Of a DNA stretch of 64,000 bases, positions 3,841 through 55,125 are shown in pieces. The notes beneath the pieces are model-generated. The model was not told the DNA's origin, made no database searches, and worked only from the letters and a program-made list of their open reading frames with translations. The first letter of the stretch is position 1. The number at the start of each line of letters is the position of its first letter. The DNA is taken from assembly GCA_965218975.1 (NCBI GenBank), contig OZ244717.1, positions 338,347-402,346 on the forward strand. Reading direction: 5' to 3'. The stretch comes from Candidatus Oxydemutatoraceae bacterium. Lineage in GTDB: Bacteria; Pseudomonadota; Gammaproteobacteria; Poriferisulfidales; Oxydemutatoraceae. A program made the position numbers and the translations under genes.

Positions 3841-5814
<1,974 letters not shown>

Positions 5815-5846
5815 CAAGAATCTCATTTAAGTTTCTTGAGTTAACT

Positions 5847-8036: not shown

Positions 8037-8521
8037 GCGCATAGAACTGTTGCCGAGACGAGCGTGTGAACACCTGCTATGGTGGCGCCCTAATTTGATT
8101 TTCCCTTTACAGGTTCCAAAACCCCTTTTGGCTATAATAGATACTATTATTAACGTATTAACGGCATCCTCGCGAGGACGATTATGGTCGGAGCTATCAA
8201 GCTCGGATCAGTTGGTTATGGACGCAACCAAGTAAACCGGAGTGTTTTTGTCGTTTGCCACCGAAACAGACTGATCATTGGACAACAATCGGAAAATCTG
8301 GTGAAAAAATATTGATTTACCAACAGGATATTGTGAAATATATACTAATTAGATTAGAAGAGGGGAATTTCGGCAATTCTTATCTAGTATCGGCTCGGGC
8401 GAAAATGATTCAGAGCGATGTCTTTTACGGAGTAATGAAAAGCCTTGCGAGAAAGAAAAAAGGTTGCCGGTCACGCTATCGTGATTGGTCGAAATAAAAC
8501 CCGTCGATTGCGCTTAGCGCA

Positions 8522-10243
8522 ATGCTCATGCCAAGACAAGTGATCCAACAGGAATTACCCCTGCCTTTTCCAAAGCTTGGCGCAGACATGCCATTATTGC
8601 CGGCGCGTATGGTGAATGAGTACGAATATTGCCCGCGTCTCGCTTATCTGGAGTGGGTACAAAAAGAATGGGCAGATTCGTCGGATACCGTCGAGGGCAA
8701 GTATCGGCATCGTCGCGTCGATAGATTCGGGGGCAATTTGCCGGACCCGGAGCAGGTGGCGGCAGACGAAACATTTCACGCGCGTTCGATTACTTTGTCC
8801 TCGAATCAACTCGGGGTTATTGCAAAACTTGATTTGGTGGAAGGGGAAGGCAATGCCGTTATCCCTGTAGATTATAAAAAGGGGAAACGCCCCCATGTGG
8901 CACGAGGTGCATACGATCCCGAACGTGTTCAACTATGCCTGCAGGGCATGTTGTTGGAAGAGCACGGTTATGAATGTGCGGAGGGGATCTTGTATTACGC
9001 GGAATCGAAGGAACGGATACGTGTGATCTTTGATAAAGAATTGAAAAACAAAACCCTGTCCGCAGTCTCTAGCCTGCGCCTCATGGCTGCCGGCAAAAAA
9101 ATGCCGCCGCCTTTGGAAGACAGCCCTAAATGCCCGCGTTGTTCTTTGGTTGGCATCTGCCTTCCGGATGAAGTTAACTTTTTGAAGTATATGAAAACAC
9201 CGCCGAGACCTCTAAGTGTCGCGCAGGACGACAGCCTTCCGGTATATGTGCAGGCCAACCGCGCCTCTGTCAAAAAGGCAGGAGAGACTCTGGAAATCCT
9301 GGTTGAGGATAAGTTAGTCAAGAAAGCCCGTTTGCCGGAGGTTTCGCAAGTAGTCTTAATGGGCAATGTATATCTCACCACTCCCGCTTTGTGCGAACTC
9401 ATGCGCCGGGAAATTCCGATCACTTGGCATTCCTTTGGCGGCTGGTTTCTGGGGCATACCATTGGCACCGGACACAAAAATGTCGAGCTGCGCACGGCAC
9501 AGTTCAAGGCCAGTTTTGATGAACAGGTGTGTCTGACTTTGTCTAAAGGGTTCGTGCGCGCCAAGATTCAGAATTGTCGCATCATGATGCGGAGAAACTG
9601 GAAGCTGAAAGATAAGCCTGCCAGACTGTACCGTGCATTTCACCAAGATGCTAACCGGTCTGACCGTGTGTCTTCAATAACCGAATTATTGGGTGTGGAG
9701 GGTAATGCGGCAGCGCGATATTTCGGTGAATTTCAAAATTTGATCAAGCGGGAAAAGGACACGGATCAATTTATTTTTGAGTTTGAGAAGCGCAACCGTC
9801 GTCCGCCGGCAGACCCAGTCAATGCTTTATTGTCATACGCTTATAGCCTTTTAACACGTACCTGGACGGTTACCCTTACTGCGGTAGGGTTTGATGCATA
9901 CCGTGGATTTTTTCATCAGCCCCGCTATGGCCGTCCGGCGCTGGCGCTGGATATGATGGAACCCTTTCGTCCTTTGGTTGCCGATTCCACAGTGTTGATG
10001 GCAATTAACAACGGTGAAGTTCGTCCGGGCGATTTCATATCTGCGGCTGGTAGCTTCAATCTGACGCCTGCAGGAAGAAAACGGTTTATCGGAACATTTG
10101 AACGGCGACTGAGTCAGGAAATTATTCACCCGCTGTTCGGCTATAAAATCAGTTACCGCCGCCTGTTTGAGGTGCAAGCCAGACTGTTGGCTCGATTCCT
10201 TCTTGGCGAGTTGATTGAGTTTCCCCAATTTACCACGCGGTGA
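8522..10243 (+). CDS. cas1: Cas4-Cas1 fusion protein (adaptation module of type I-G)
   Basis: The N-terminal Cas4 domain shows 'YEYCPRLAYLEW' and a C-terminal Cys cluster 'CPRCSLVGICLPDE'. A Cas1 domain follows, giving 573 aa. The Cas4-Cas1 fusion is characteristic of I-G/I-U. Confidence 0.9.
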   Translation: MLMPRQVIQQELPLPFPKLGADMPLLPARMVNEYEYCPRLAYLEWVQKEWADSSDTVEGKYRHRRVDRFGGNLPDPEQVAADETFHARSITLSSNQLGVIAKLDLVEGEGNAVIPVDYKKGKRPHVARGAYDPERVQLCLQGMLLEEHGYECAEGILYYAESKERIRVIFDKELKNKTLSAVSSLRLMAAGKKMPPPLEDSPKCPRCSLVGICLPDEVNFLKYMKTPPRPLSVAQDDSLPVYVQANRASVKKAGETLEILVEDKLVKKARLPEVSQVVLMGNVYLTTPALCELMRREIPITWHSFGGWFLGHTIGTGHKNVELRTAQFKASFDEQVCLTLSKGFVRAKIQNCRIMMRRNWKLKDKPARLYRAFHQDANRSDRVSSITELLGVEGNAAARYFGEFQNLIKREKDTDQFIFEFEKRNRRPPADPVNALLSYAYSLLTRTWTVTLTAVGFDAYRGFFHQPRYGRPALALDMMEPFRPLVADSTVLMAINNGEVRPGDFISAAGSFNLTPAGRKRFIGTFERRLSQEIIHPLFGYKISYRRLFEVQARLLARFLLGELIEFPQFTTR

Positions 10244-10247
10244 GACA

Positions 10248-10538
10248 TTGGAAGAACATCTTTATGTCATTGCTTATGACATTTCCGATCAAGCAAGGGG
10301 GCGCCTGATATTCAAACTGCTGCATGGTTATGGGGAATGGTTGCAAATGTCTGTCTTTCAATGCCGGCTATCCCGTCGTCGTCATGCGGAATTGATTGCC
10401 ATGCTGGACGAAATTATCCACCACACGGAAGATCATGTTATGCTGATGGACCTGGGATTAGCGGATTCGGTTAAACCGAAAATTGTAAGTCTAGGCAAAG
10501 GTTTTCAACCGGTGGAAAGGGAACCGATTATTGTCTGA
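10248..10538 (+). CDS. cas2: Cas2
   Basis: 'EEHLYVIAYDISDQARGRLIFKLLHGYGEWLQMSVFQCRL' matches the Cas2 N-terminal beta-strand/DIS motif. The TTG at 10248 is 5 nt after the cas1 stop. The listed 10215 start would overlap cas1. Confidence 0.7.
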   Translation: MEEHLYVIAYDISDQARGRLIFKLLHGYGEWLQMSVFQCRLSRRRHAELIAMLDEIIHHTEDHVMLMDLGLADSVKPKIVSLGKGFQPVEREPIIV

Positions 10539-10614
10539 TGTTCTTCCGTTCTTCATAACTCCCGCGAGAGCCTAGGTGATGAACGTTTGTCCGGGCAGTG
10601 CTCGCATAAAAATG

Positions 10615-10690
10615 TTCTTTGACAATCAGTATCTTACAGGTGACATCTTGCAAAAAAAATACAAGAAACACGACAGTGTTATGATGCATT
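10615..10690 (+). promoter_or_regulatory. Candidate CRISPR leader promoter within the 211-bp AT-rich leader
   Basis: Consensus -35 'TTGACA' at ~10619. An extended -10-like 'TGtTATGAT' at ~10677 lies ~65 bp upstream of the first repeat. Confidence 0.25.
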
Positions 10691-10749
10691 TAGACCTCTC
10701 GAAATGGCTTTCTATAATCTTTGCCAAACAATAGGTTATGGGATGTGCT

Positions 10750-13700
10750 GTATTCCGTAGCTATATGCTACGGCCTCATTGAAGCATCTCCATTTTATAC
10801 GCGGCAGAATTACCGCGTGATGTATTCCGTAGCTATATGCTACGGCCTCATTGAAGCGATATGGCCACATTCGGCGATGAGGACGATGACATCAGTATTC
10901 CGTAGCTATATGCTACGGCCTCATTGAAGCTAGAAGTAGTGGTTTTATACCTTGATAGAAGTTTTGTTGTATTCCGTAGCTATATGCTACGGCCTCATTG
11001 AAGCCGACACTGTATGTGATCGCGAGCTACTCTGTGACACGTATTCCGTAGCTATATGCTACGGCCTCATTGAAGCGAGAATAATGAAAAGTAAGATGAA
11101 AACACCTGCTTATGTATTCCGTAGCTATATGCTACGGCCTCATTGAAGCTTTTGCAGCAAGCTGCTAAAATTATGATAACAGATTGTATTCCGTAGCTAT
11201 ATGCTACGGCCTCATTGAAGCTTCTAAGTTCGGCTTCCATCATTTGTTGAGCACCTGGTATTCCGTAGCTATATGCTACGGCCTCATTGAAGCATCTACA
11301 AGTCGCTCGCATCTCCGCACGTCATCGGCGTATTCCGTAGCTATATGCTACGGCCTCATTGAAGCAGCACCGGTAGTTTCTGTTGAAGAACTTGCTATGA
11401 AGTATTCCGTAGCTATATGCTACGGCCTCATTGAAGCCAATGCCAAAGACCTAATGCACCATGTCATTAGATGTATTCCGTAGCTATATGCTACGGCCTC
11501 ATTGAAGCATCGACCAGCCGCTCGCATTTCTGCACGTCATCGGCGTATTCCGTAGCTATATGCTACGGCCTCATTGAAGCGAGATAACCGTCAGTAATTC
11601 CGCAAAGAATTTTGTGGTATTCCGTAGCTATATGCTACGGCCTCATTGAAGCGATTACTTGGGCACAAGAAACGAAAGCAGCATATCGTATTCCGTAGCT
11701 ATATGCTACGGCCTCATTGAAGCGAATTTTCAAGCGTTTGCGTGTACCAGATATGCCGGGTATTCCGTAGCTATATGCTACGGCCTCATTGAAGCCGTAC
11801 AGGCAGTCACGCATCGGAGATCGGCATCGCGGTATTCCGTAGCTATATGCTACGGCCTCATTGAAGCGAGAGGTTAGCTGCACCTGCCGACTGGAAAGAA
11901 TCAAGTATTCCGTAGCTATATGCTACGGCCTCATTGAAGCTCGAGTTATCTTCGCGTTAGTCGGGTCAAAAAATAGTATTCCGTAGCTATATGCTACGGC
12001 CTCATTGAAGCCTGCAATTCAACCTGCAAACCGTTTTTTACAATGCGGTATTCCGTAGCTATATGCTACGGCCTCATTGAAGCTGCCGCAAGTGTCGGGT
12101 TGCCGAAGTCGTTAAATGCGTATTCCGTAGCTATATGCTACGGCCTCATTGAAGCTTTACCCCGCTCCACAATGGCCATGATTGCTGCGTAGTATTCCGT
12201 AGCTATATGCTACGGCCTCATTGAAGCTGCGGGTCGCCGACGCAAGAAAAAAGGTTGCATTAGGTATTCCGTAGCTATATGCTACGGCCTCATTGAAGCT
12301 TGGCGGGACGCAACTAAGTCGACCGAAGGGTTAGGTATTCCGTAGCTATATGCTACGGCCTCATTGAAGCTGGGCTGTACCCTGACGACTCCTGCGAATT
12401 TGATGATGTATTCCGTAGCTATATGCTACGGCCTCATTGAAGCGCGGTAAACGCTAACTCCATGTTCAGCTAATCGGCTGCGTATTCCGTAGCTATATGC
12501 TACGGCCTCATTGAAGCCTCACTGCCTTCGTTTCCTTCCAGCATAATTACAGCGTATTCCGTAGCTATATGCTACGGCCTCATTGAAGCTATATTTTTTT
12601 TCTACATCTTCCATGTTTTATCTCCGTATTCCGTAGCTATATGCTACGGCCTCATTGAAGCCCACGATTATCTTTGTGTTGCGAATGATTGCCGAGGTAT
12701 TCCGTAGCTATATGCTACGGCCTCATTGAAGCCGGTGTAAAATCATCCATCAAAATAACGGTCTTGCTGTATTCCGTAGCTATATGCTACGGCCTCATTG
12801 AAGCAAGAAATTGAACATCGGCTACAGCTATGATACCTGACGTATTCCGTAGCTATATGCTACGGCCTCATTGAAGCTGTTTTGTAGTAGTGCATTGTTA
12901 GCAGTTCGTTTGTGTATTCCGTAGCTATATGCTACGGCCTCATTGAAGCTTCTCCAATAACTGTTGGGTCAGGCACAAGGCCTGCGTATTCCGTAGCTAT
13001 ATGCTACGGCCTCATTGAAGCTAGTAAGATCATTAGTTCTGCTGTTTTGAGATTCCGGTATTCCGTAGCTATATGCTACGGCCTCATTGAAGCTGCAAGA
13101 GCTAATTGAAGGTGGAAAAAATGGCAGGTGTATTCCGTAGCTATATGCTACGGCCTCATTGAAGCAACGTTACACAGAATTAGTTGTATAGACTTATTAG
13201 GGTATTCCGTAGCTATATGCTACGGCCTCATTGAAGCCCACGATTATCTTTGTGTTGCGAATGATTGCCGAGGTATTCCGTAGCTATATGCTACGGCCTC
13301 ATTGAAGCCGGTGTAAAATCATCCATCAAAATAACGGTCTTGCTGTATTCCGTAGCTATATGCTACGGCCTCATTGAAGCTCATTGACTCGGGATATGGA
13401 CGTCCTCGATTCTTTAGTATTCCGTAGCTATATGCTACGGCCTCATTGAAGCTATGCAAAAGATACCGAAGAATACAATAATTTGAAGTATTCCGTAGCT
13501 ATATGCTACGGCCTCATTGAAGCTTTGAAGATCAATATGTATTCAATCGTTAAGTTGGGGTATTCCGTAGCTATATGCTACGGCCTCATTGAAGCACATT
13601 GGATAGTGCTGCGATTGAGCCTTTTATGAGAGGTATTCCGTAGCTATATGCTACGGCCTCATTGAAGCCCATTCTCCAAAGCTGCCGCGAGAAACCCGTT

Positions 13701-15981
13701 CCCGCGTATTCCGTAGCTATATGCTACGGCCTCATTGAAGCTCTACGGTGATCTGACCGAGCACTTCCAACTCAGCGTATTCCGTAGCTATATGCTACGG
13801 CCTCATTGAAGCTACGCAGCGGTACGGCGTCTCGGAGCCGCACACTTGGGTATTCCGTAGCTATATGCTACGGCCTCATTGAAGCGAGGCAGCTTTGTCC
13901 ATTTGCTGGAGCCGCACGCGGTATTCCGTAGCTATATGCTACGGCCTCATTGAAGCCGGTGTAAAATCATCCATCAAAATAACGGTCTTGCTGTATTCCG
14001 TAGCTATATGCTACGGCCTCATTGAAGCTCATTGACTCGGGATATGGACGTCCTCGATTCTTTAGTATTCCGTAGCTATATGCTACGGCCTCATTGAAGC
14101 TATGCAAAAGATACCGAAGAATACAATAATTTGAAGTATTCCGTAGCTATATGCTACGGCCTCATTGAAGCTTTGAAGATCAATATGTATTCAATCGTTA
14201 AGTTGGGGTATTCCGTAGCTATATGCTACGGCCTCATTGAAGCACATTGGATAGTGCTGCGATTGAGCCTTTTATGAGAGGTATTCCGTAGCTATATGCT
14301 ACGGCCTCATTGAAGCCCATTCTCCAAAGCTGCCGCGAGAAACCCGTTCCCGCGTATTCCGTAGCTATATGCTACGGCCTCATTGAAGCCTCACTGCCTT
14401 CGTTTCCTTCCAGCATAATTACAGCGTATTCCGTAGCTATATGCTACGGCCTCATTGAAGCTATATTTTTTTTCTACATCTTCCATGTTTTATCTCCGTA
14501 TTCCGTAGCTATATGCTACGGCCTCATTGAAGCGCGGATGATAATTTGTGCAATTCCCTCATTTGCCTTAAGTATTCCGTAGCTATATGCTACGGCCTCA
14601 TTGAAGCCCGGAAGTTAAAGTCCCCATGTCCGCAGTTAAAGCGGAGTATTCCGTAGCTATATGCTACGGCCTCATTGAAGCGGCTCGGCAATTTCAGTCA
14701 TCAAATCTTTATAACTCGTATTCCGTAGCTATATGCTACGGCCTCATTGAAGCATGATGGTGTTTTAGCACCGTCATGAATGATGTTAAGTATTCCGTAG
14801 CTATATGCTACGGCCTCATTGAAGCTTGTTGCAGTATTTATTTTTATCTCGCTTGTCATGTTGTATTCCGTAGCTATATGCTACGGCCTCATTGAAGCTG
14901 GTAAGCACATTCGACTCAACCATGGCTTTCCTCACGTATTCCGTAGCTATATGCTACGGCCTCATTGAAGCTGTGTGGCGGAATGTCCCTTTTGGGTATA
15001 GTTTATCCGTATTCCGTAGCTATATGCTACGGCCTCATTGAAGCAGCGAAGAAGCCGATGAGGCAGGCGTATATATAGTGTATTCCGTAGCTATATGCTA
15101 CGGCCTCATTGAAGCGACCGCTGTAACTACGACCTGTCACATTACATAATGTATTCCGTAGCTATATGCTACGGCCTCATTGAAGCGGTGCTTTACTCAC
15201 GCATTCAAGGAATCCGGCGCATGTATTCCGTAGCTATATGCTACGGCCTCATTGAAGCAAATCTCCGTTGTTGTGGTGCCGGCAAGAGCGCCGGGTATTC
15301 CGTAGCTATATGCTACGGCCTCATTGAAGCAACCTTTGCATCTGGGGATAAAAAACAGTACTGGAATGTATTCCGTAGCTATATGCTACGGCCTTATTGA
15401 AGCATTGCAAATCATCCATATACGGATAAGGAAACAAAGTATTCCGTAGCTATATGCTACGGCCTCATTGAAGCTTTGGCTTCTATTGTTCTGCGCGGTT
15501 CGGGTACGCATGTATTCCGTAGCTATATGCTACGGCCTCATTGAAGCCCAACTATTTGGTCAACACCTATCAACCCAGAAATAAGTATTCCGTAGCTATA
15601 TGCTACGGCCTCATTGAAGCGACTCAACGCTAATGACGCATACGGCAAAGCCGGATGTATTCCGTAGCTATATGCTACGGCCTCATTGAAGCGGCGTTGG
15701 GTAAATCTCAGCTAGTGCGTAAAGTGCACGTATTCCGTAGCTATATGCTACGGCCTCATTGAAGCGATTTTCTAAGTCAGGAAGCTCCAACCCGCAACAT
15801 AGGTATTCCGTAGCTATATGCTACGGCCTCATTGAAGCAAGCCGCTGTTATATCGAGTGGTCAAGGAGTGAGTGGTATTCCGTAGCTATATGCTACGGCC
15901 TCATTGAAGCTTTTCGTTATTGGGACGCAAGTCATTCCAGGAGACGTATTCCGTAGCTATATGCTACGGCCTCATTGAAGC
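10750..15981 (+). CRISPR. CRISPR array, ~73 repeats of 36 bp (GTATTCCGTAGCTATATGCTACGGCCTCATTGAAGC) with ~35-37 nt spacers
   Basis: A perfect 36-bp direct repeat recurs at ~72-73 bp periodicity, with an internal 7-bp palindrome CCGTAGC-TATAT-GCTACGG. The 3' 'ATTGAAGC' end resembles the I-C/I-G 'ATTGAAAC' handle. The leader is cas2-proximal. One repeat (15368-15403) carries a C>T variant. Confidence 0.97.
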
Positions 15982-26544: not shown

Positions 26545-27060
26545 AGAAACATTTGAAACCGTTTTGTGTTTGGTGGCAGATTGTCGGCGGATTGTGCCGG
26601 ATTATTGGTGGATTGTTGGTAGGTTGTGCCGGATTATTAGCAAAGTGCATGTCGTCCATGACGCGACTGGGTTCTGTCAACAAGCCCCAGCCCCGACATC
26701 CTTGTCGGGTCGTTCGCCGCTGAAAACCGTTCGGTTTTCCGGGCGCGGCTTACCCATGACGCGACTGGGTTCTGTCAACAAGCCCCAGCCCCGACATCCT
26801 TGTCGGGTCGTTCGCCGCTGAAAACCGATCGGTTTTCCGGGCGCGGCTTACCCATGACGAGACTGGGTTCTGTCAACAAGCCCCAGCCCCGACATCCCTG
26901 TCGGGTCGTTCGCCGCTGAAAACCGTTCGGTTTTCCGGGCGCGTCTCACCCGACAACGGACAGAAAGCACCGATCCGAATGTTGCTGCCGAATGCTTCCC
27001 CGGAAGCCCTTCAAGAATCCCATTTAGGGTGGCATCGTACATTCTTGACAAGCCCGCCGC
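26545..27060. repeat. Composite intergenic repeat locus R1: GGATTGTCGG-type short repeats, 3 tandem ~98-bp two-hairpin units, and a conserved ~110-bp tail
   Basis: The unit 'ATGACGCGACTGGGTTCTGTCAACAAGCCCCAGCCCCGACATCCTTGTCGGGTCGTTCGCCGCTGAAAACCGTTCGGTTTTCCGGGCGCGGCTTACCC' recurs three times. It carries hairpins CCGACA-tcct-TGTCGG and GAAAACC-gttc-GGTTTTC. Confidence 0.9.
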
Positions 27061-27487: not shown

Positions 27488-27852
27488 TCGTTCGCCGCTG
27501 AAAACCGTTCGGTTTTCCGGGCGCGGCTCACCTGTTTTGTGTTTGGTGGTAGATTGTCGGCGGATTGTGCCGGGTTGTTGGTGGATTGTTGGTAGGTTGT
27601 GCCGGATTATTAGCAAAGTGCATGTCGTCCATGACGAGACTTCGTGCTGTTAATGAACCCCAGCCCCGACATCCTTGTCGGGTCGTTCGCCGCCCGCTAA
27701 AAAAGGTGGCACCGTTCGGTTTTCCGGGGCGCGGCTCACCCATGACGAGACTTGGTTCTGTCAATGAGCCCCAGCCCCGACATCCCTGTCGGGTCGTTCG
27801 CCGCTGAAAACCCCGCTGAAAACCGTTCAGTTTTCCGGGCGCAGCTCACCCT
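27488..27852. repeat. Composite repeat locus R2 (same family; head plus ~2.5 units)
   Basis: Same head ('gattgtcggcggattgtgccgggttgttggtggattgttgg...caaagtgcatgtcgtccatgacg') and same hairpin units as R1. Confidence 0.9.
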
Positions 27853-44420: not shown

Positions 44421-44844
44421 CGAACGTACTAGATATTTAAAAATATACACCGAGAGAATCTAAAATATATTAAATGGCGTCGTGCCGGTTCCGTCCGAAG
44501 AAATAACGGATGCCAATCTCGGTTATTCACCGTCTTTGGACTTCGTTTTTATCCCACGGCACATCGGAGAGGAAATAACGGATGCCAAGCTCGGTGATTC
44601 ACCGGGAATACGGTAATGATAGATTGGCTTACATTAGAGTCACCACAGAGTCACCACTAACTCATGGAGGGGCATTTTCCTTGTCGCAGGCTGCACAATT
44701 CACTAAGAATGCCGTCGCCGGATTGTGGCTGATCTTCTCCCACAAATTGAACACTATGCGAAGGGAAGCTCGGTGCAAAATAGCTCCGGAGGAAACGAAC
44801 CTCCCGAATAATCGGCCGTGTCTCCTTGAAGTTCAAATCAGAAA

Positions 44845-47433
44845 ATGCCGCACCTTTTTGAAGCATTAGAACATTCTGCTGCCAGCTGGCGTAAGAAGGG
44901 TTATCCTTGTGACGCCTATCCGCTCATAGGCGAAATTCTTGCTTACCAAACGGAAAAGCAGGAGGACAGGTCAACCCCGAAGTTTCTGCGCGAACCCCAA
45001 TTCCTTGCCTTGGAGGTTTACTGGTATATCCGCCTTATACGGGAAACCCCTCATATCATAGACCTTTACAAGCATTATCACGGCAGCAATAAAGAAGATT
45101 TTTTTGATGCGCTTGGAATCTCAGTATCAAGAGATGCTTTGGAGTTTGCAGAAATAGACGGAATGATTGAAAAAATTAAAAGGGATGAGGGTTTTGTCAA
45201 AGACAAAAGAATTCAAGCGTTGCACGAAGCCGTCAAATTAGACTATCCGAGCTACATTTTTGCTTTGGCTATGGGTGCGGGCAAAACCGTTCTGATAGGG
45301 ACGATTATCGCAACCGAGTTTGCAATGTCGCTGCGTTATCCCAAAGATAGATTTATGAAAAATGCCCTCGTTTTTGCTCCGGGCACGACAATCATAGAAA
45401 GTTTGCGCGAACTCAGCGATATATCTTATGAGCAGATTTTGCCGCCCGGCCTTAACCGCGATTTCCTTGCTAATTTGAAGATTGAATTTCCGGGCAAGGA
45501 AAAAGACATACAGGCGCAGAGAAACAGCAGTTATAACTTGATTGTTACCAATGTTGAAAAAATCAACCTGCGTGCCAGGCAGCGGGAGAATCAAACACAA
45601 TTATCTTTTGAACACGAAGAAGCACAGGCGAATCTACGGCTTCAAAAGATCGCAAGCCTGCCCGGCCTCGGGGTTTTTTCAGATGAAGCGCACCACACAT
45701 ACGGAAACACCTTTGACAAACTCAAACGCGTGAGGGAAACCATCAACTACATACACGAGCAGACTGAAATAGTGGCGGTGATCAACACCACCGGAACGCC
45801 TTACTATAAAAAGCAACCCTTAAAGGAGGTGGTTGTCTGGTACGGGCTTGGCGACGGCATCAAAGATAATATCCTCAAAGGCCTCAATAACGGCATTCAT
45901 CTATACGATATCGGAGAGCAGCCGGAGGAAGAGGTTTTTAGGGACATCATTCGAGAATTTTGGGAGGGCTACGGAAATGTTTCTCTTCCCAACGGCGCAC
46001 CGGCAAAGATTGCCTTTTATTTCAAAACGCAACAGCATCTGGTAAGTTCAAAACAACAAATAGAGAAGGCGATGACGGAAATCGGGCAACCTGTTTCCCA
46101 TATATTAGTTAATACACAACAATCCGATGCAGCGCAGATCGACGAGTTTAAGCGTCTCAATAATCCCGAAACCCAGAAGCGAGTTATTCTGTTGATCGGC
46201 AAAGGGGTTGAAGGTTGGAACTGCCCCAGCCTGTTTTCCTGCGCACTGATAAAGGAGCAGACGAGTAAGAATTACGTTTTGCAAGCATCAACGAGATGTT
46301 TGCGGCAGGTTCCGGGCAATAGCCTTCCGGCGAAGATATTTCTAGATTCCGTCAACGCAACGATTCTAGACAAAGAATTACAAAATAACTTCGGCACCGA
46401 TCTTGATAGACTTAGCGGGGAAACGGGAGACAAAGAAACCATCACTCTGCGTATTCTTAAAACAGAACTGCCGAAACTGGAAATCACCCGCACTGTTAAA
46501 AGAGCTATAAGAAAAGGGGAAATAAACAGAAATATACGTTTGGAGAAACCGAAGGCGCAAAAACTGCCCGTTGTATTGCGCAGCATTTGCACCCCTGATT
46601 TCAGCGGTCCAAAGGAAATATTAATGCCGACAGGACAAACGAAGGAGCTACCGGCGGGAAGACGTGTTACCGGTTGCCATACTGCCGCTTGGAGAATCGC
46701 TTCACGATACCATGTACCGGTTCTACCGATCTTGAAAAAACTCAAAAGCTTTTATCCGAAAGGAGTAATGCCGGATAGTCATTTATACGGGCTTTTTCAG
46801 CAGGTTGAACGGCAACAAACAAGTTACACAACGGTTGAAGAAAAAGTAACCGAGGCGATGGCGTTGATCCGAGTTCAGGATGAGAACGGAGAAGGCATCT
46901 TTGATAAGGATGAAAAGGGGGTTTTTGTTCACCGTTTGCGGTTGCTTAAAAGGACTGTTGAACGTATGGAAGAAGGCGGATTGTTTGCAGAGAGGGAAAA
47001 TTATGAGGACCAGCACGAGTTGAGTTTTCACTATACCCCCTACAACTTTGACAGCAAACCGGAACGTTCCCTGTTCCGAAGGATTTTATCCATGTTGAAT
47101 ACAGAACCTTATGACGTGGAAGTGTTTCTGTTCACCGGTGGGCTAACAGACCCGAAGAAAACTGATTTCCATTTTGAATATCTGGGCGAAGACAAGCGGT
47201 ATCATCGCTACTTTCCGGATTTTGTGATTGCCAAAAAGACCGGTGAGTTTTATATTGTCGAGGTGAAAGAAGATAAGCGCGAGGATAAAACTGTGGAGGC
47301 CAAGAAAAAGGCAGTTGAGAAACTGCAGAATTTGCCAACGAACAAGTTCGGATACCATATTATCTATGCTTCTACAGCGACGCTAGGCGTGAGAGAAACC
47401 ACGCCGATTCAGAATTGGATACAAAAAAACTAA
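44845..47433 (+). CDS. Type III restriction enzyme Res-like subunit: SF2 helicase plus C-terminal PD-(D/E)xK nuclease, 862 aa
   Basis: Motifs I 'AMGAGKTVLIG', II 'FSDEAHH', III 'NTTGTPY' and VI 'QASTRCLRQ'. The C-terminus 'YFPDFVIAKKTGEFYIVEVK' is a PD...EVK nuclease motif. Confidence 0.7.
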   Translation: MPHLFEALEHSAASWRKKGYPCDAYPLIGEILAYQTEKQEDRSTPKFLREPQFLALEVYWYIRLIRETPHIIDLYKHYHGSNKEDFFDALGISVSRDALEFAEIDGMIEKIKRDEGFVKDKRIQALHEAVKLDYPSYIFALAMGAGKTVLIGTIIATEFAMSLRYPKDRFMKNALVFAPGTTIIESLRELSDISYEQILPPGLNRDFLANLKIEFPGKEKDIQAQRNSSYNLIVTNVEKINLRARQRENQTQLSFEHEEAQANLRLQKIASLPGLGVFSDEAHHTYGNTFDKLKRVRETINYIHEQTEIVAVINTTGTPYYKKQPLKEVVVWYGLGDGIKDNILKGLNNGIHLYDIGEQPEEEVFRDIIREFWEGYGNVSLPNGAPAKIAFYFKTQQHLVSSKQQIEKAMTEIGQPVSHILVNTQQSDAAQIDEFKRLNNPETQKRVILLIGKGVEGWNCPSLFSCALIKEQTSKNYVLQASTRCLRQVPGNSLPAKIFLDSVNATILDKELQNNFGTDLDRLSGETGDKETITLRILKTELPKLEITRTVKRAIRKGEINRNIRLEKPKAQKLPVVLRSICTPDFSGPKEILMPTGQTKELPAGRRVTGCHTAAWRIASRYHVPVLPILKKLKSFYPKGVMPDSHLYGLFQQVERQQTSYTTVEEKVTEAMALIRVQDENGEGIFDKDEKGVFVHRLRLLKRTVERMEEGGLFAERENYEDQHELSFHYTPYNFDSKPERSLFRRILSMLNTEPYDVEVFLFTGGLTDPKKTDFHFEYLGEDKRYHRYFPDFVIAKKTGEFYIVEVKEDKREDKTVEAKKKAVEKLQNLPTNKFGYHIIYASTATLGVRETTPIQNWIQKN

Positions 47434-48389
47434 TGGAACGCCACTCATTCTCGCCCGACAACCGAACAGGCCGGAAAGTTTTCCATGGACTGTATTACCG
47501 CAGGCGCATCCTGCTTGCCATTCTGGCGCAAAGAAAGAGGCGCATAGAGAAACTGCGTTTGCAGAAGCTGCTCTTCCTTTTCACTCAACAGCAAGAAAAG
47601 CCGGCATACTATTTTCTTCCTTATAAATATGGAAGCTACTCATTTCAGGCCTCCGAAGACGCAAGAATACTCGCTTGCCATTACGGTTTGATAATAAATA
47701 GCCGGGACGACTCTTATTCCTTGAACAAAAAAAACGTTAAAGAAGAATATTTTGCACTAAAAGACACGGACCACGATCGGCTGGCACATGTATATAAGCA
47801 ATACGGACCTCTCTCAACAAAGGAGTTAATTTACCAAGTTTACAAACAGTATCCGTACTATGCGGTCAGAAGTGAAATAATTGGTGAGCAGCGCTTCAAG
47901 GCGTTACATAAGAGCATAAAGAAAGAGCAGCTACAATTCCAAACAAGCAACGGTCGCCGTTGTCTCTACACAATCGGTTATGAAGGCATAAGCATAGAGC
48001 AATATATTTCCCGCCTGATGAGAAACGGCATATCCGCTCTGGTGGATGTCAGACGCAACCCCTTCAGCATGAAGTACGGATTTTCCAAAACTCAGTTACG
48101 GCGTATCACTAAAAAATTTGACATAGAGTATTACCACATACCTGAGCTCGGGGTCGAAAGCGACCGTCGCGTGAACTTGACGACCCGCGCCGACTATAAT
48201 CAACTCTTCAGAATGTATCGTAGATCATTGCGGCAAGAGGAGGAAAGTCTGCAATGTATTCAAACTATTTTGCGTGAACATTTGCGTACGGCGCTGACGT
48301 GCTTTGAAAAAAAACACGAGTGGTACCATAGAGGAATTTTATCCGAAGCAATTCATGCTCAATGCGGTATAACCGTAAAGCACTTTTGA
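47415..48389 (+). CDS. Two-domain protein: unknown N-terminal domain plus C-terminal DUF488 domain
   Basis: The C-terminal 'LYTIGYEGISIEQYISRLMRNGISALVDVRRNPFS' matches the DUF488 N-terminal signature (TIGY...VDVRR.P.S). 324 aa. Confidence 0.6.
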   Translation: MDTKKLMERHSFSPDNRTGRKVFHGLYYRRRILLAILAQRKRRIEKLRLQKLLFLFTQQQEKPAYYFLPYKYGSYSFQASEDARILACHYGLIINSRDDSYSLNKKNVKEEYFALKDTDHDRLAHVYKQYGPLSTKELIYQVYKQYPYYAVRSEIIGEQRFKALHKSIKKEQLQFQTSNGRRCLYTIGYEGISIEQYISRLMRNGISALVDVRRNPFSMKYGFSKTQLRRITKKFDIEYYHIPELGVESDRRVNLTTRADYNQLFRMYRRSLRQEEESLQCIQTILREHLRTALTCFEKKHEWYHRGILSEAIHAQCGITVKHF

Positions 48390-49007
48390 AAGGCGTGGGA
48401 ATCCAAAAAATAAAGGCAAAACAGTTTACAGATTTTTCTCATGCGCCTATTCCAAACCCGGAACGTCAAAAATACCAAGCAAAGAGAGAGAACATTCTGA
48501 ATAGTCGGAAGCAGGGGTCGCTGATAGATGATGGCCTGAGAGATGCCGAGCTGGTATCTGCCCCCGACTATCGTTTCTACTATCACTTTGACGATCTAAA
48601 CGGCAAAAACAGTAAAATGATGATAGCAGATTGGGAAATACAAGCGTTATACAGAAATTGTTTGCGAGGGAAAAATAAGCAACAAGCGCTTGAGGATGTG
48701 CGCAAAAAATACTCTGGCGGGCCGACAGACTCGAACAAAACCGATTTCCATTTTTGAATATCTAGGCGAAGACAAGCAGGATCATCGCTACTTTCCGGAT
48801 TTTGTGATTGTCAAAAAGACCGGCGAGTTTTATATTGTCGAGGTGAAATCGAAAGATGAGCGCGGGGATGAAACCGTAGAAGCAAAGAAGAAAGCGGTGG
48901 AAAAGTTACAAAATCTACAAGCTGATAAGGTTAAATATAATATCATTTACACAAAGACGAACACAATAGGGGTTGAGGACATTGACATCAATACGATTGT
49001 GGATTAG
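48362..49007 (+). pseudogene. Frameshifted duplicate of the Res C-terminal PD-(D/E)xK domain
   Basis: The 131-aa ORF ends '...YSGGPTDSNKTDFHF*' and the next-frame 105-aa ORF continues 'EYLGEDKQDHRYFPDFVIVKKTGEFYIVEVK...'. Together they parallel Res residues '...FTGGLTDPKKTDFHFEYLGEDKRYHRYFPDFVIAKKTGEFYIVEVK'. An extra T in 'ccattttt' causes the shift. Confidence 0.65.
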
Positions 49008-49022
49008 GTAGGAGTCGGATGA

Positions 49023-49893
49023 ATGCGACCACTTGATGAGTATATCAAATCTCACCTGAATGATTACATTAAAGAAATCGGTGAGGCATTGGGAGGGGTT
49101 GACACAATGTCAATAGTTAGCCCGATTATTCCCGGTGTTGATCAAAAAGTTAGAAATGTTATTGATATGAAGCAAGAGAAAAAATCCGCAATCGCTGTGG
49201 TTCTACAGACTCCTGGTGGCGTAGTTGAAATTGTTGAAAGGATGGTTGAAGTAATCAGAAATTTTTATACTGAAGTAAGTAGTAGTGATAGTACCAGACC
49301 GGGCAATGTCTGCCGGAACTGTTTTTACGTTGAGTGCAGACAGAATAATGATGGACTATTTTTCTCGATTGGGTCCGATTGACCCACAAATTGTTAAAGA
49401 CGAAAAACTTGTACCCGCTCTCTCTTACTTGAATCAGTATGAAATTTTGAATAAAAAAGCTAAACAGGGCCAACTCACCACGGCAGAGTATGCCATGCTT
49501 GACAAACTTGATTTGGGTGAATTGTATCGATTTGAGCAAGCCCGCGAACTCTCCATAGAACTTCTCAAGAAGTGGCTTTTTACATACAAATTTAAAGATT
49601 GGAGAAAGACAGAGAGTAGAAAACAGGCGGTTACAGAAGAAATGAAAGAGGAGCGTGCCGAAGAGATTGCTCAAAAATTAAATGATACAAACAGATGGCA
49701 TTCGCACGGACGAGGAATAGATATTTTCACTTTAAGGGAAGAATTAAATTTGAGAATTGAAGACTATTCGGAAAACAAAAAATTAAGCAAATATATACAG
49801 AATTACTATAATCTTCTAATTGATTATTTGGAACGAGAGAGGGTGGGTTCTTTCGTTCACACGGAGGAATATTTCTCGGAGGGATATTTTTAG
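49023..49893 (+). pseudogene. ClpP-like SDH-family (serine dehydrogenase proteinase) serine protease, frameshifted
   Basis: 'LQTPGGVVEIVERMVEVIRNFY' in one frame continues in the next frame as 'IVPDRAMSAGTVFTLSADRIMMDYFSRLGPIDPQ'. The shift is near 49276-49290. Confidence 0.6.
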
Positions 49894-50088
49894 ACATGGG
49901 GGAAAAATAAATCGACTGGAGAAAATTCCATTTAGTCAGTTGTCCAAAAACAATCCGAAAATATCAACATCTGTTGTTACCCAACATCGTGAGTTGGAGG
50001 AAAAATTGAAAAACATAGGTGTGCGTAAAAAAGCTCGCTACACGCTTTCTCCCCCACTTGGCGAGACCATTAATCTATCAAAAATAGT

Positions 50089-51810
50089 TTGAAGTCTCTA
50101 AAAATCACCCCAGTTAAAGGTCGCCCGATGCTACACTGGATCGGTAAGAAGCCGCTGGATGTTGTCCGCCATTTTCCGGCGCAGTTATGCGAGAGTATCG
50201 GCATTGAAAACCCGCCTGTTGAGCCGTCGCACAAGAAATTTATTAAAAGCGATTACAACCTGCTCTTTCACGGCGACAACAAAGAAGTTCTTTCCTCTCT
50301 TTTGATTGCCGGGTTTCGGGGCAAGATAGATCTGATTTACATTGACCCGCCGTTTGATTCCGGCGCGGATTATGTCCGCAAGGTGACGTTGCGCGGGCAG
50401 TCTGCGAAACTTGCGGGTGAGGGGCATACTTTTATTGAGCAGGTGCAATACGAAGACATTTGGGCCAATGATAACTATTTGCAGTTTATGTATGAACGAC
50501 TGATTCTGATGCGCGAGTTGTTGAGTGATAAGGGAAGTATTTATCTGCATTGCGATTGGCACAAAAGCCACCATCTGCGGTTTTTATTGGATGAAGTATT
50601 TGGTGCGGAAAACTTTATAAATGAGATTGTTTGGTATTACAAAGATGCATCGGGAATTCTTAAGAAAGGTTTTAGAAAAAAGCACGACGGCATTTTTATT
50701 TATTCTAAGAGTACAGATTTTTATTTTGACGTAGATTCTGTTCGTCAGGAGTATGGAGATTCAACGAAAAAAGCGGCAGAAACAGGAACATTTTCTTTTG
50801 GCAGACCTACAAGGATTAATCCTTTGGGGAAGTATCCCGATGATGTTTGGGAAATAGCTATAATTAACAGTCAAGCAAAAGAAAGACTCAATTTCCCCAC
50901 CCAAAAACCCGAAGCACTTTTAGAGCGTATTATCAAAGCCTCCAGCAACGAAGGTTCCATCGTCTTGGACTGCTTTTGCGGCAGCGGCACAACCGCCGCA
51001 GTCGCCGAAAAGCTGGGACGGCGCTGGATTATGGCGGACTTGAACAAAGGCGCGATTCAAACGACCATCAAGCGATTGCAAAGTGTTATCAAAGAAAAGA
51101 ATGGCGACCTTGCGGAAAAAAACGGACGCGGGTTGATTCATTATCGGGTCAACAACTACGATTTCGCAAAGCAGGCCGAACTCAAGAAAATCATCGTCTC
51201 TAAATACGGTATTCAAACAGACCACAAGGATTTGTTCTTTGACGGAACGGCCGACGGCCGGTTGGCAAAGATTACCGATTTGGACAAGCCGCTGACGCGG
51301 TTGGATATTCAGATTATCAAAGACGAAATTGCCGATAACCGGCCGGACGAAACACGACACATCATCGTTTTCTGTAATGGTTCCGAGTTGGAATTGATCA
51401 AAGAGCTTAACGAAGAAATAAGACCGATCAATAAAATTAGCATCTGCGATATCCGGCAGGACGGAATGATTACCGATCAGCTGGCGCAAGCGGAGATTAA
51501 AATTACGAAAAGAGGCAAAAAGGCGATTATCAAAATTGAAGATTACATCAGCCCTACGATACTTGCCCGACTGGAGATTGACCGCAGTTTGTTTAATGAG
51601 CAGGTCGAAGATTTCCGATCGCAAATAGATTGCGTATTGATTGATACCAATTACAACGGCAAGGATTTCAGAATAACGGAAAGCGACTTGCCTGAGAAAA
51701 AGACCGGTCTCATCAGAGGGGAATACACACTGAACTTGCCCCGAGCAGGCGTCAAAGTGGCGGTAAAAATCGTGGATATGCTCGGAGAGGAAGTTTTGGC
51801 GATTAAGTAG
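50089..51810 (+). CDS. Beta-class N6-adenine DNA methyltransferase, type III Mod-like
   Basis: Motif IV '[16 protein letters not shown]' precedes motif I '[15 protein letters not shown]'. The '[15 protein letters not shown]' box is present. 573 aa. Confidence 0.8.
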
Positions 51811-51889: not shown

Positions 51890-52560
51890 TGCGTCGGGTG
51901 AATCTCGGTAGCTTTGTGTTCGGTGTGGGGTTGTCGGTGGATTGTGCCGGATTGTCGGCGGATTGTTGGCGGATTGTTGGCAAAGTGCCTGTCGTCCATG
52001 ACGCGACTTAGTTCTGTCAACAAGCCCCAGCCCCGACGTCCTTGTCGGGTCGTTCGCCGCTGAAAACCGTTCGGTTTTCCGGGCGCGTCTCACCCTGTCG
52101 TCCATGGCGAGACTTGGTTCTGTCAATGAACCCCAGCCCCGACGTCCTTGTCGGGTCGTTCGCCGCTGAAAACCGTTCGGTTTTCCGGGCGCGTCTCACC
52201 CGTTTTGTGTTTGGTAGCAGATTATTGGCAAAGTGCTTGGTGCAGGTTTGTCGGCGGATTGTGCCGGGTTGTTGGCAAAGTGCCTGTCGTCCATGACGAA
52301 ACTTAGTTCTGTCAATAAACTCCAGCCCCGACATCCTTGTCGAGTCGTTCGCCGCTGAAAACCAGTAGGTTTTCCGGGCGCGGCTCACCCAGCCCCGACA
52401 TCCTTGTCGGGTCGTTCGCCGCTGAAAACCGATCGGTTTTCCGGGCACGTCTCACCCGGCAACGGACAGAAAGCACCGATCCGAATGCTACTGCCGCACG
52501 CTTCCCCAGAAGCTCTTCAAAAATCCCATTTAGGGTGGCATCGTACACGGTGTTGGCAAG
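51890..52560. repeat. Composite repeat locus R3 (same family as R1/R2): two heads, ~3.5 hairpin units and the conserved tail
   Basis: 'caaagtgcctgtcgtccatgacgcgacttagttctgtcaacaagccccagccccgacgtccttgtcgggtcgttcgccgctgaaaaccgttcggttttccgggcgcgtctcaccc', and the tail 'cggcaacggacagaaagcaccgatccgaatgctactgccgcacgcttcccc...'. Confidence 0.9.
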
Positions 52561-52745: not shown

Positions 52746-54761
52746 ATGAAACTATTAATTCGAACGGCTACTCTTTTAATGGCCTTTGCTTTTATTCTCA
52801 CCTCGACAACGCAAGCGCAAAACGCCCCGGCGGATCAAGCGGAGTTCGAGAGGCTGGTTGCAGGTATGCAGATAGAGGCTGCTGTTGGTAGCACCATGAC
52901 CACACTGCAATTCCCGAATCCAGGGCGTATCCTAGAAATTAGTGAAGAAGGAAACTTCCTTGGTAATTATCAGTACACAAATACCGGCGACAATACGGGA
53001 ATGCTCACTTACACCTACGACGCGAGCGGTAACAATGCGGCTATGGAGCAAACCGAGGGTACACTCACGTTCACTTCGGCGACAATGGGAACATTCGAGA
53101 GTACCTATTTCTATGTCACAGCGAGCGAACCCCGTGTGATGAGCAGTGGCACATTTGAAATCGTCGACGCCGAACCTCCAGCTGTGTTTGCCCCACTGGA
53201 TCAAGCGGAGTTCGAGAGGCTGGTTGCAGGTATGCAGATAGAGGGGATTGATGCTCGCGGCAGCATGGGCACACTGCAATTCCCGAATCCAGGGCGTATC
53301 CTGGAAATTGTGGAAGAAGGAAACTTCTTTGGTGATTATCAGTACACAAATACCGGCGACAATACGGGAATGCTCACTTACACCTACGACGCGAGCGGTA
53401 ACAATGCGGCTATGGAGCAAACCGAGGGTACACTCACGTTCACTTCGGCGACAATGGGAACATTCGAGAGTACCTATTTCTATGTCACAGCGAGCGAACC
53501 CCGTGTGATGAGCAGTGGCACATTTGAAATCGTCGACGCCGAACCTCCAGCTGTGTTTGCCCCACTGGATCAAGCGGAGTTCGAGAGGCTGGTTGCAGGT
53601 ATGCAGATAGAGGCTGCTGTTGGTAGCACCATGACCACACTGCGATTCCCGGACTCGGGCCGTATCCTAGAAATTAGTGAAGAAGGAAACTTCCTTGGTA
53701 ATTATCAGTACACAAATACCGGCGACAATACGGGAATGCTCACTTACACCTACGACGCGAGCGGTAACAATGCGGCTATGGAGCAAACCGAGGGTACACT
53801 CACGTTCACTTCGGCGACAATGGGAACATTCGAGAGTACCTATTTCTATGTCACAGCGAGCGAACCCCGTGTGATGAGCAGTGGCACATTTGAAATCGTC
53901 GACGCCGAACCTCCAGCTGGGTTCGCCCCGCAGGATCAAGCGGAGTTCGAGAGGCTGGTTGCAGGTATGCAGATAGAGGGGATTGATGCTCGCGGCAGCA
54001 TGGGCACACTGCAATTCCCGAATCCAGGGCGTATCCTGGAAATTGAAGAAGAAGGAATCTTCCTTGGTAATTATCAGTACACAAATACCGGCGGCAATAC
54101 GGGAATGCTCACTTACACCTACGACGCGACCGGTAACAATGCGGCTATGGAGCAAACCGAGACTATACTCACGTTCACTTCGGCGACAATGGGAACATTC
54201 GAGAGTACCTATTTCTATGTTGAAGCAAGCGAAACCCCCGAGGTGAACACAGGTACATTTGAAATCGTTGCTGCTCCGGTCGCCCCGGCGACTCAAGCGG
54301 AGTTCGAGAGGCTGGTTACAGGTATGCAGATAGAGGCTGCTGTTGGTAGCACCATGACCACACTGCGATTCCCGGACTCGGGCCGTATCCTAGAAATTAG
54401 TGAAGAAGGAAACTTCCTTGGTAATTATCAGTACACAAATACTACCGCCGTTTCCACCAGTGTAGGAAGCCTCACTTACACCTACGACGCGAGCGGTAAC
54501 GATCCGGCTATGGAGTACGTCACGGTCAACCTCGTGTTCACTTCGGCGACAATGGGAGCATTCGAGAGTACCTATTTCTATGTTGAAGCAAGCGAACCCC
54601 GTGTGATGAGCAGTGGCACATTTGAAATCGTCCCTATTCCTGGTAGCAGCGGTGGCGGTGGCGGCAGCGGCAGCGCGGGTTTGTGGCTGTTATTGCTACT
54701 GCTTGCATCAGTTGTCGGCAATCGCTGTGCTCCTGTCATTTTTCGGACCGGATCATCCTAG
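52746..54761 (+). CDS. Secreted repetitive protein with a GlyGly-CTERM-like sorting signal, 671 aa
   Basis: Signal peptide 'MKLLIRTATLLMAFAFILTSTTQAQ'. Five ~121-aa repeats. The C-terminus is 'GSSGGGGGSGSAGLWLLLLLLASVVGNR'. Confidence 0.8.
   Translation: MKLLIRTATLLMAFAFILTSTTQAQNAPADQAEFERLVAGMQIEAAVGSTMTTLQFPNPGRILEISEEGNFLGNYQYTNTGDNTGMLTYTYDASGNNAAMEQTEGTLTFTSATMGTFESTYFYVTASEPRVMSSGTFEIVDAEPPAVFAPLDQAEFERLVAGMQIEGIDARGSMGTLQFPNPGRILEIVEEGNFFGDYQYTNTGDNTGMLTYTYDASGNNAAMEQTEGTLTFTSATMGTFESTYFYVTASEPRVMSSGTFEIVDAEPPAVFAPLDQAEFERLVAGMQIEAAVGSTMTTLRFPDSGRILEISEEGNFLGNYQYTNTGDNTGMLTYTYDASGNNAAMEQTEGTLTFTSATMGTFESTYFYVTASEPRVMSSGTFEIVDAEPPAGFAPQDQAEFERLVAGMQIEGIDARGSMGTLQFPNPGRILEIEEEGIFLGNYQYTNTGGNTGMLTYTYDATGNNAAMEQTETILTFTSATMGTFESTYFYVEASETPEVNTGTFEIVAAPVAPATQAEFERLVTGMQIEAAVGSTMTTLRFPDSGRILEISEEGNFLGNYQYTNTTAVSTSVGSLTYTYDASGNDPAMEYVTVNLVFTSATMGAFESTYFYVEASEPRVMSSGTFEIVPIPGSSGGGGGSGSAGLWLLLLLLASVVGNRCAPVIFRTGSS
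52838..54652 (+). repeat. Five near-identical tandem 363-bp coding repeats in A-B-A-B-A order
   Basis: 'DQAEFERLVAGMQIE...' recurs five times. It alternates between 'AAVGSTMTTL(Q/R)FP(NP/DS)G' and 'GIDARGSMGTLQFPNPG' variants. Confidence 0.9.
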
Positions 54762-54879: not shown

Positions 54880-55125
54880 TCGGCCGGAGGCAAAGTGCTT
54901 AGTCCAGGTTTGTCGGCGGGTTGTGCCGGGTTGTTGGCAAAGTACATGTCGTCCTTGACGAGACTTGGTGCTGTCAATGAACTCCAGCCCCGACGTCCTT
55001 GTCGAGTCGTTCGCCGCTGAAAACCAGTAGGTTTTCCGGGCGCGTCTCACCCAGCCCCGACGTCCTTGTCGAGTCGTTCGCCGCTGAAAACCAGTAGGTT
55101 TTCCGGGCGCGTCTCACCCTTACAA
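54880..55125. repeat. Composite repeat locus R4 (head plus ~1.5 hairpin units)
   Basis: 'gtttgtcggcgggttgtgccgggttgttggcaaagtacatgtcgtccttgacgagac...ccagccccgacgtccttgtcgagtcgttcgccgctgaaaaccagtaggttttccgggcgcgtctcaccc'. The second hairpin loop changes from GTTC to AGTA while the stem is kept. Confidence 0.85.

Follow-up and report, generated by a model that had tools for sequence, protein, structure and literature searches.

The window analysed here, a stretch of 64,000 nucleotides from a Candidatus Oxydemutatoraceae bacterium (assembly GCA_965218975.1, contig OZ244717.1, positions 338,347 to 402,346 of the forward strand), carries on its plus strand a two-gene unit in which a helicase-nuclease gene, res, stands first and a DNA methyltransferase gene, mod, second, with 2,655 bp between Res (44845-47433) and Mod (50089-51810). 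We consider it likely that this unit is a type III-like restriction-modification (R-M) pair whose res-mod junction serves as a slot for swappable cargo genes. The R-M family is apparently undescribed: a literature search within the searchable library returned no account of type III-like systems in res-first order or of any cargo slot between res and mod, nor did queries directed at 8xMP, a membrane protein found in the slot, or at DUF488, a domain encoded by the window cargo, in a defence context. The window copy is itself an ordinary, partly decayed member of an interesting family.

A res-first pair and its relatives

Mod is probably an N6-adenine methyltransferase of the type III Mod kind, to judge from its sequence. 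The Pfam family N6_N4_Mtase matches residues 80-326 (E 6e-57), the best PADLOC model is MTase_III (E 5e-77), and a profile of the Mod family built from 26 sequences recovers, among solved structures, EcoP15I Mod first (3e-30) and the type III Mod 6k0w second (4e-29), with a match that spans an N-terminal region absent from small type II enzymes. Motif IV, DPPF (residues 86-89), precedes motif I, FCGSGTT (near residues 296-302), and a hypervariable segment at residues 176-270 lies between them; this order, taken together with the type III profile matches, marks the protein as a beta-class methyltransferase related to type III Mods. Across 50 homologues identity to the window residue is 0.17-0.38 in the segment at residues ~176-270 as against 0.7-0.9 in the flanking motif blocks, and the segment has been exchanged between mod genes that are otherwise 94-99% identical (survey loci L020 and L022, see below). 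It is presumed to be the target-recognition domain. Beyond the catalytic region there is a conserved C-terminal domain of ~230 amino acids, for which neither a Pfam nor a PDB match was found.

Res has the layout of a type III restriction subunit, with a superfamily 2 (SF2) ATPase at the N-terminal side and a PD-(D/E)xK nuclease at the C-terminus. Residues 123-319 pass the gathering threshold of Pfam ResIII (E 4e-8), and there is a weak TnsA-like nuclease match at the C-terminus. The motifs GAGKT (144-148), DEAH (280-283), TGTP (315-319), EGWNCP (456-461) and Q480...R487, as well as the nuclease motif P791 D792 ... E806-V-K808, are invariant or nearly so in 46 homologues, and the window protein is full length when set beside homologues of about 864 amino acids. 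An AlphaFold2 model of Res, computed from a 46-sequence alignment that includes representatives at 50% identity, has a predicted local distance difference test (pLDDT) score of 84.5; an earlier model from 22 close homologues scored 59 and was discarded. With the retained model Foldseek gave SF2 helicases as the best structural matches, RadD, EcoP15I Res and EcoR124I HsdR being matched about equally. The NCBIfam model NF046055 (BPTD_3080 restriction endonuclease), which is ~970 amino acids long and has the same layout, aligns over its positions 140-310 with Res 122-293, and its C-terminal nuclease region (894-936) is matched by a res remnant in the window described below; at 52.9 bits, far below the cut-off of 800, Res is a distant relative of that family at best and not a member.

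Res homologues of the same length form 3,395 clusters at 90% identity among the scored candidates (E <=1e-5), the best of them 60-74% identical, and a whole-library search with Res yielded 1,133 representative proteins at E <=1e-3, about 35 of them full-length clusters. Our survey comprises the 80 closest of 509 relative loci, one genome per species, together with L001, which was added by exact look-up; survey loci carry the prefix L and are cited with their own coordinates. Nearly all of the 80 lie in metagenome-assembled genomes named for sponge-symbiont groups. The groups represented include Poribacteria, Latescibacterota, Spongiihabitans and Poriferihabitaceae, and also Nitrospirales, Thermodesulfobacteriota, Arenicellales and Limisphaerales; from these relatives we infer that the family's window copy comes from a sponge symbiont.

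Comparison of the locus in related genomes bears out the pairing. Of the 77 loci whose sequence extends far enough past Res, 75, from many phyla, encode a Mod homologue downstream of Res and in the same orientation, and the pairwise identities of Res and of Mod are correlated (r=0.89, Mantel p=0.001, n=50 loci), from which we conclude that Res and Mod are a co-inherited two-gene unit and that res-first is its normal order. The exceptions are L054, with no Mod within 10 kb, and L028 (5726-12613), in which Mod is immediately upstream of Res and the canonical order is found: PDC-M24B, an 8xMP fragment, a TIR-like protein of 370 amino acids, Mod, and then directly Res, as if the unit had been permuted. 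No third conserved gene was detected within 3 kb on either side, no protein cluster there occurring in more than six loci. Distant members from Saccharibacteria (48-50% identity) are mostly tight pairs. A first-pass annotation of the window had placed a Res-like and a beta-class Mod-like protein on the plus strand, with which the domain searches agree, and had offered decay or an insertion event, among other options, to account for the wide separation and res-first order. An anomaly or decay of a canonical mod-res pair is not supported, in view of the prevalence of that order and of filled gaps in 47 of 74 loci. Nearest the mark was its further option of a different helicase-nuclease/methyltransferase-based system, in the form of a separate family, type III-like, that has a place for cargo built into it.

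In some members a single Res is followed by two or three Mod genes in tandem, as in L030 (12619-16690), L045 (12764-16962) and L053 (12828-19783) and also in L048 and L072. Most of the tandem copies are intact (a and b of L030, a and b of L045, b and c of L053), which hints at several specificities served by one Res. Carriage of the module by phages was considered and is disfavoured, as only three distant relatives (42-44% identity) were found in 2.9 million viral contigs.

The slot and the turnover of its cargo

The res-mod gap, taken as the distance between the stop codon of Res and the start of Mod, was measured in 74 loci, the window included, and pairs were called tight at <=150 bp. The gap is <=150 bp in 24 loci, 151-500 bp in three, 0.5-1.5 kb in 23, 1.5-3 kb in 18 and more than 3 kb in six; those gaps that exceed 500 bp range from 0.5 to 4.5 kb. 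Many tight pairs have overlapping stop and start codons, and the existence of 24 tight pairs suggests that the two genes are sufficient alone. Where the gap is filled its genes follow the direction of the pair, with 99 of 100 gap open reading frames (ORFs) of at least 100 amino acids on the res/mod strand. These ORFs fall into recurrent families of defence type, namely ThsB-type TIR proteins with the 8xMP membrane protein; TIR-TPR proteins of 500-740 amino acids; PDC-M24A/B (DUF6978 and DUF1828); PDC-M34A (DUF5343) with a Hypoth_Ymh HEPN-type protein; TIR-like proteins of about 250 amino acids and a TIR_2 protein; an SDH protease with a small ORF; PDC-M19A/B; ParE-like toxin pairs and HI1420-type antitoxins; an OLD/AriA-like ATPase; a peptidase C26 homologue; and several proteins without a match.

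Cargo turnover is far faster than the divergence of res and mod. The res genes of L020, L027 and L022 are 97-98% identical, yet L020 holds the TIR and 8xMP genes, L027 the SDH protease and small ORF, and L022 a TIR_2 protein; L060, L061 and L064, with res 97-99% identical, all differ in cargo; and L016 is a tight pair, whereas L072 and L073, which are 93-94% identical to it, contain PDC-M34A and Ymh-HEPN. The boundaries of exchange are sharpest between L020 (Pseudohongiella) and L027 (Candidatus Spongiihabitans; 9963-15409), in which res and mod DNA is 97-98% identical: one block of homology runs from 38 bp before the res start to the res stop and another from 5 nt ahead of the mod start to the mod stop, and the outer flanks are unrelated. 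Judged by these alignments, the module appears to have moved recently between bacterial orders, with exchange of exactly the slot contents. The cassettes are not confined to the slot. Homologues of the SDH protease lie about 7 kb upstream of Res in L003 (3139-3996) and L033 (2844-3689), the latter followed by a small-ORF homologue (3831-3959), and the cassette thus also exists independently of the res-mod junction.

In the window itself the genes between res and mod are, as the first-pass annotation had it, insertions of which two have decayed (Table 1), and its labels of DUF488 fusion, nuclease duplicate and SDH/ClpP-like protease were borne out; the 131-aa ORF upstream of the duplicate proved instead to be a truncated PDC-M19B. 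The ORFs as called run from 47415 to 48389 (324 aa), from 48362 to 48757 overlapping one at 48690-49007, and from 49023 to 49382 overlapping one at 49285-49893. The strength of the domain matches, and a repeat of 97 nt with 95% identity, show them to be real rather than chance frames. The PADLOC profile PDC-M19A matches the DUF488 fusion with E 9e-94, its positions 1-291 of 294 aligning with residues 26-321, and Pfam places DUF488 at residues 193-312. Translation of the fusion more likely begins with the ATG at 47433, where the res stop codon and this start overlap as TAATG. This PDC-M19A is full length, and its counterpart in L011 is 54% identical to it as a protein and about 65% as DNA. Both window cassettes are present intact in L011, where M19A and M19B have 308 and 269 amino acids (M19B, E 7e-101); in the window, by contrast, the M19B ORF covers only profile positions 128-227 of 269. 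Against the L011 DNA about 370 bp (about 120 codons) are deleted at the 5' side and homology is lost after about 48712, from where a res remnant replaces the gene's own 3' end. The candidate PDC-M19 system is accordingly incomplete in the window, with B truncated at both ends. A Pfam search of PDC-M19B gave no match.

The remnant repeats the end of res. Positions 47137-47175 recur at 48716-48754 with 85% identity and 47172-47268 at 48752-48848 with 95%, there being a 1-nt offset between the two blocks, and weaker similarity (about 70%) runs on to 49007, the end of both copies; tblastn with Res homologues finds the remnant at E 1e-32, and its 105-aa ORF has a TnsA-like nuclease match. A run of five T residues (48751-48755) stands where res has four, and the extra T separates the 131-aa and 105-aa ORFs. 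The protease that follows is also broken, by a 4-nt insertion near 49269-49272 relative to the intact 283-aa genes of L027, L023 and L011, which leaves no continuous frame of ~283 amino acids; Pfam SDH_protease (PF01972) and NCBIfam Clp_like_SDH (NF047768) match only the second protease ORF (202 aa). Both frameshifts had been proposed in the first-pass annotation and were confirmed. Homology of the small ORF to partners of 66-76 amino acids begins near 49930; tblastn finds such partners directly after the protease in L011, L023 and L027, and also in L015. The small-ORF stop overlaps the Mod start codon, a TTG, as TTGA, and the same overlap occurs in L023 (TTGA) and L027 (GTGA). From their sequences the R-M core and M19A look functional, and M19B and the protease look dead.

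Remnants of this sort are found elsewhere in the family. Stubs of the res 3' end occur in the gaps of the window, L001, L011 and L030, and stubs of the mod 5' end in L002, L011, L023, L037, L044 and L049. The order in L011 is Res, SDH protease, small ORF, M19A, M19B, a mod 5' stub joined to a res 3' stub, M24A, M24B, a second mod 5' stub, further sequence and finally Mod, which looks like nested fragments, each of slot plus arm, from other family members. Loss seems to leave traces as well. A 90-bp gap in L018 (12589-12680) and a 131-bp gap in L003 (12589-12721) keep the first codons of a TIR gene, and the L003 gap also retains the last codons of an 8xMP gene; these short gaps read as deletion scars of lost cargo. 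Site-specific insertion was considered and is disfavoured: inspection by eye of the sequences around the res end and the mod start in 38 loci brought no conserved junction motif to light, and at many junctions a stop codon overlaps a start codon. There are no visible mobility genes with the module.

We propose the following model. Mod would methylate adenine in a short target read by residues ~176-270, and Res, an ATP-driven SF2 motor with a PD-ExK nuclease, would team with Mod to cut unmethylated incoming DNA. Comparison shows the cassettes set between the two genes in their orientation, with stop and start codons that often overlap, and the cassettes would probably share one transcript with res and mod. 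Exchange of cargo probably proceeds by homologous recombination between family members, with the conserved res and mod genes as arms, and occasional illegitimate joins would leave res 3' or mod 5' stubs behind. The window may then represent a unit of res, PDC-M19A and PDC-M19B fused to one of res 3' end, SDH protease, small ORF and mod, with breakpoints inside M19B and inside the nuclease domain of the old res, the protease frameshift having been acquired after the join.

Kinship with type III systems and rival readings

Type III R-M systems methylate one strand of an asymmetric site, and their ATP-dependent cleavage needs two inversely oriented unmethylated sites. The window family resembles EcoP1I and EcoP15I in having two subunits, in the central variable recognition region of its beta-class Mod, and in the disposition of ATPase and nuclease in Res. 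It differs in that its Mod has the additional C-terminal domain, in that PADLOC models miss its Res, and in that most loci hold cargo between the two genes. The R-M reading of the first-pass annotation survives the comparison: the 862-aa protein does not fall among unrelated helicases, and Mod has no other partner.

Several observations weigh against this reading and the history we attach to it. The order is res then mod, not the canonical mod-then-res seen in phage P1. An hhalign comparison of Res with EcoP1I Res of that phage covers only helicase motifs V-VI (53-133 columns, probability 20-59%), the restriction-enzyme models of PADLOC give no match to Res, a PDB sequence search with two Res profiles produced no significant match, and EcoP15I Res ranks only fifth in the Foldseek search (E 2e-9, template modelling score 0.30), among generic SF2 helicases. 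At the sequence level Res thus shows no recognisable kinship with canonical type III Res, its similarity to EcoP1I Res being almost nil, and we call the system type III-like by architecture, its gene order being different and the homology of its Res to type III Res unproven. The restriction and methylation activities are predicted from the genes, and the recombination route is deduced from footprints. The res remnant in the window is slightly closer to the clade of L020, L022 and L027 (78-80%) than to the clade to which the 5' part of its intact res belongs, but the difference is slight (80% against 76%) and the signal weak, and the one-base frameshift in the T run could be a sequencing error. 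Finally, the survey sample was chosen for similarity to a query that itself seems to come from a sponge symbiont; slot frequencies and the sponge association may be biased, and the frequencies may differ among more distant members.

That a canonical type III pair was rearranged by random insertions and is decaying towards loss would account for the two pseudogenes among the inserted genes, the duplicated res fragment and the GC content, which is lower than in the flanks. Decay in the window touches only the cargo, however; Res and Mod are intact, full length and with all motifs, and the res-first order and filled gap are the norm of the family, L028 alone having Mod directly upstream. We regard such decay as very improbable. 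Still harder to credit is an assembly artefact, in which mis-assembly or sequencing error in a metagenome assembly would have produced the res-end duplication and the frameshifts. The source is apparently such an assembly and one frameshift does lie in the T5/T4 homopolymer, but the two res copies differ at many positions (85-95% identity and then about 70%), unlike a duplicated pile of reads, the protease defect is a 4-nt insertion and not a homopolymer slip, and the same kinds of stub and the same cassettes recur in independent assemblies.

A further reading is a non-classical, modification-based defence with the logic of BREX or DISARM, of which the intervening genes would be integral subunits. 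Neither the restriction-enzyme models nor any solved R-M motor is matched by the sequence of Res, the C-terminal domain of Mod is conserved without Pfam or PDB relatives, and most loci have extra genes in the operon. About a third of the loci are nevertheless tight two-gene pairs, and the cargo is unrelated from locus to locus and differs between near-identical res alleles, which argues that it supplies no obligatory subunit; the helicase with PD-ExK nuclease and the type III-like Mod with a variable centre are type III architecture. An arrangement of the BREX or DISARM kind is in our judgement improbable.

A different relation between cargo and enzyme is suggested by prrC, an anticodon nuclease gene embedded in the type IC EcoprrI locus (PMC12707154). 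Cargo gene products could likewise be effectors wired to the R-M complex, latent as PrrC is under EcoprrI and firing when a phage inhibits restriction. Besides this precedent of an accessory defence gene inside an R-M operon (PMC12707154), the cargo lies within the operon with overlapping start and stop codons, and almost all of it is of abortive-infection type (TIR, membrane proteins, HEPN, toxins, protease). But EcoprrI is a type I system with one partner gene and a demonstrated regulatory interaction, whereas here many unrelated cassettes use a single slot of a type III-like system, with which any interaction is hypothetical. The cargo families are moreover too diverse for one shared protein-protein interface; the same families are also met apart from this R-M, PDC-M19, M24 and M34 having definitions of their own in PADLOC and SDH cassettes being located 7 kb away from res in L003 and L033; and two cargo genes of the window are dead while its R-M genes are intact. 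We therefore hold direct wiring to be unlikely and favour the reading of a type III-like pair with a swappable slot. Among known systems PDC-M19, a computational candidate of PADLOC, is also close: a full-length A followed by a B homologue lies in the window slot and an intact A and B in that of L011, the window differing in its doubly truncated B. Defence hotspots are reported between conserved genes of P2-like phages and P4-like satellites (PMC9122126), and these share with the res-mod slot a fixed position between conserved genes and fast-changing anti-phage systems; there the carrier phage or satellite is itself mobile, whereas here the flanking genes are a defence system with no mobility genes in sight.

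Setting of the locus and its implications

GC content is 0.38-0.45 across 45-51 kb as against about 0.5 in the flanks, and the neighbours of this low-GC region are ordinary genes (a pilin-like gene, a dienelactone hydrolase, YaaA and a Mur-ligase-family gene). No tRNA gene was found in the window, and there is thus no sign of a tRNA-targeted island; a promoter and terminator scan of the window showed no enrichment over shuffles. Just upstream of res is a 36-nt direct repeat (44497-44532 and 44569-44604, 92% identical and 72 nt apart) with no further copies elsewhere in the window, which could be a regulatory or an island-boundary feature. A dispersed intergenic repeat resembling repetitive extragenic palindromes (REP), 67-111 nt long with the core CCAGCCCCGACATCCTTGTCGGGTCGTTCGCCGCTGAAAACCGTTCGGTTTTCCGGGCGCG, has copies that follow directly on Mod, where the low-GC island ends on its right-hand side. 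At 52746-54761 is a gene for a 671-aa protein with a signal-peptide-like N-terminus and about five tandem repeats of 123 amino acids (369 nt, 88% identical), for which no informative Pfam match was found. A second defence system, a CRISPR-Cas locus at 1087-10243 and 11113-15910, lies about 30 kb from the R-M locus. Its 917-aa ORF at 1087-3840 is a type I-U-type Cas3 helicase, judged from the source names of its homologues, and is followed by further large ORFs and then by a CRISPR array of about 66 units with the 36-nt repeat GTATTCCGTAGCTATATGCTACGGCCTCATTGAAGC and a period of about 72.

Table 1. Features of the res-mod locus and copies of the REP-like repeat in the window
Feature	Position	Strand	Description
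res	44845..47433	+	862-aa SF2 helicase-like ATPase with C-terminal PD-(D/E)xK nuclease; intact
Cargo gene 1, PDC-M19A-type DUF488 fusion	47433..48389	+	318 aa from ATG; intact
Cargo gene 2 remnant, truncated PDC-M19B	48362..48757	+	131-aa ORF
res 3' remnant	48716..49007	+	last ~97 res codons duplicated, PD...EVK motif included; 292 bp
Cargo gene 3, SDH-type ClpP-like serine protease pseudogene	49023..49893	+	4-nt insertion
Small ORF accompanying protease	49820..50092	+	90 aa
mod	50089..51810	+	573-aa beta-class DNA methyltransferase; intact
Mod hypervariable central segment (residues ~176-270), presumed target-recognition domain	50614..50898	+	
REP-like repeat copy	26656-26951		
REP-like repeat copy	27629-27851		
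REP-like repeat copy	51988-52201		
REP-like repeat copy	52322-52457		
REP-like repeat copy	54984-55119		

Sponge symbionts invest heavily in defence. With no restriction enzyme of this family recognised by PADLOC, its Mod genes are probably scored as orphan methyltransferases, and R-M systems in sponge symbionts could be undercounted. The res-mod slot is also a precisely bounded site at which defence genes accumulate, and it may be used to find new anti-phage genes by association: of the cargo families that recur there, about half are without an assigned function or are candidates only (PDC-M19, M24, M34, the SDH protease with its small ORF, the partners of 8xMP, and several ORFs without a match). 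Near-identical res and mod genes in different orders with different cargo are a concrete example of the movement and recombination of defence genes in a host-associated community.

Finally, the res-mod pair may serve the embedded effectors as a common platform for both their expression and their control, keeping TIR, membrane, HEPN, protease or toxin modules latent, or sensing phage anti-restriction and releasing them, an extension that we consider doubtful on present evidence. If cargo is coupled to the R-M enzyme, the PrrC paradigm would widen from a single case to a general design, and if the pair is indeed such a platform, this type III-like family would constitute modular, two-layer immune operons that are swapped across phyla in sponge microbiomes.

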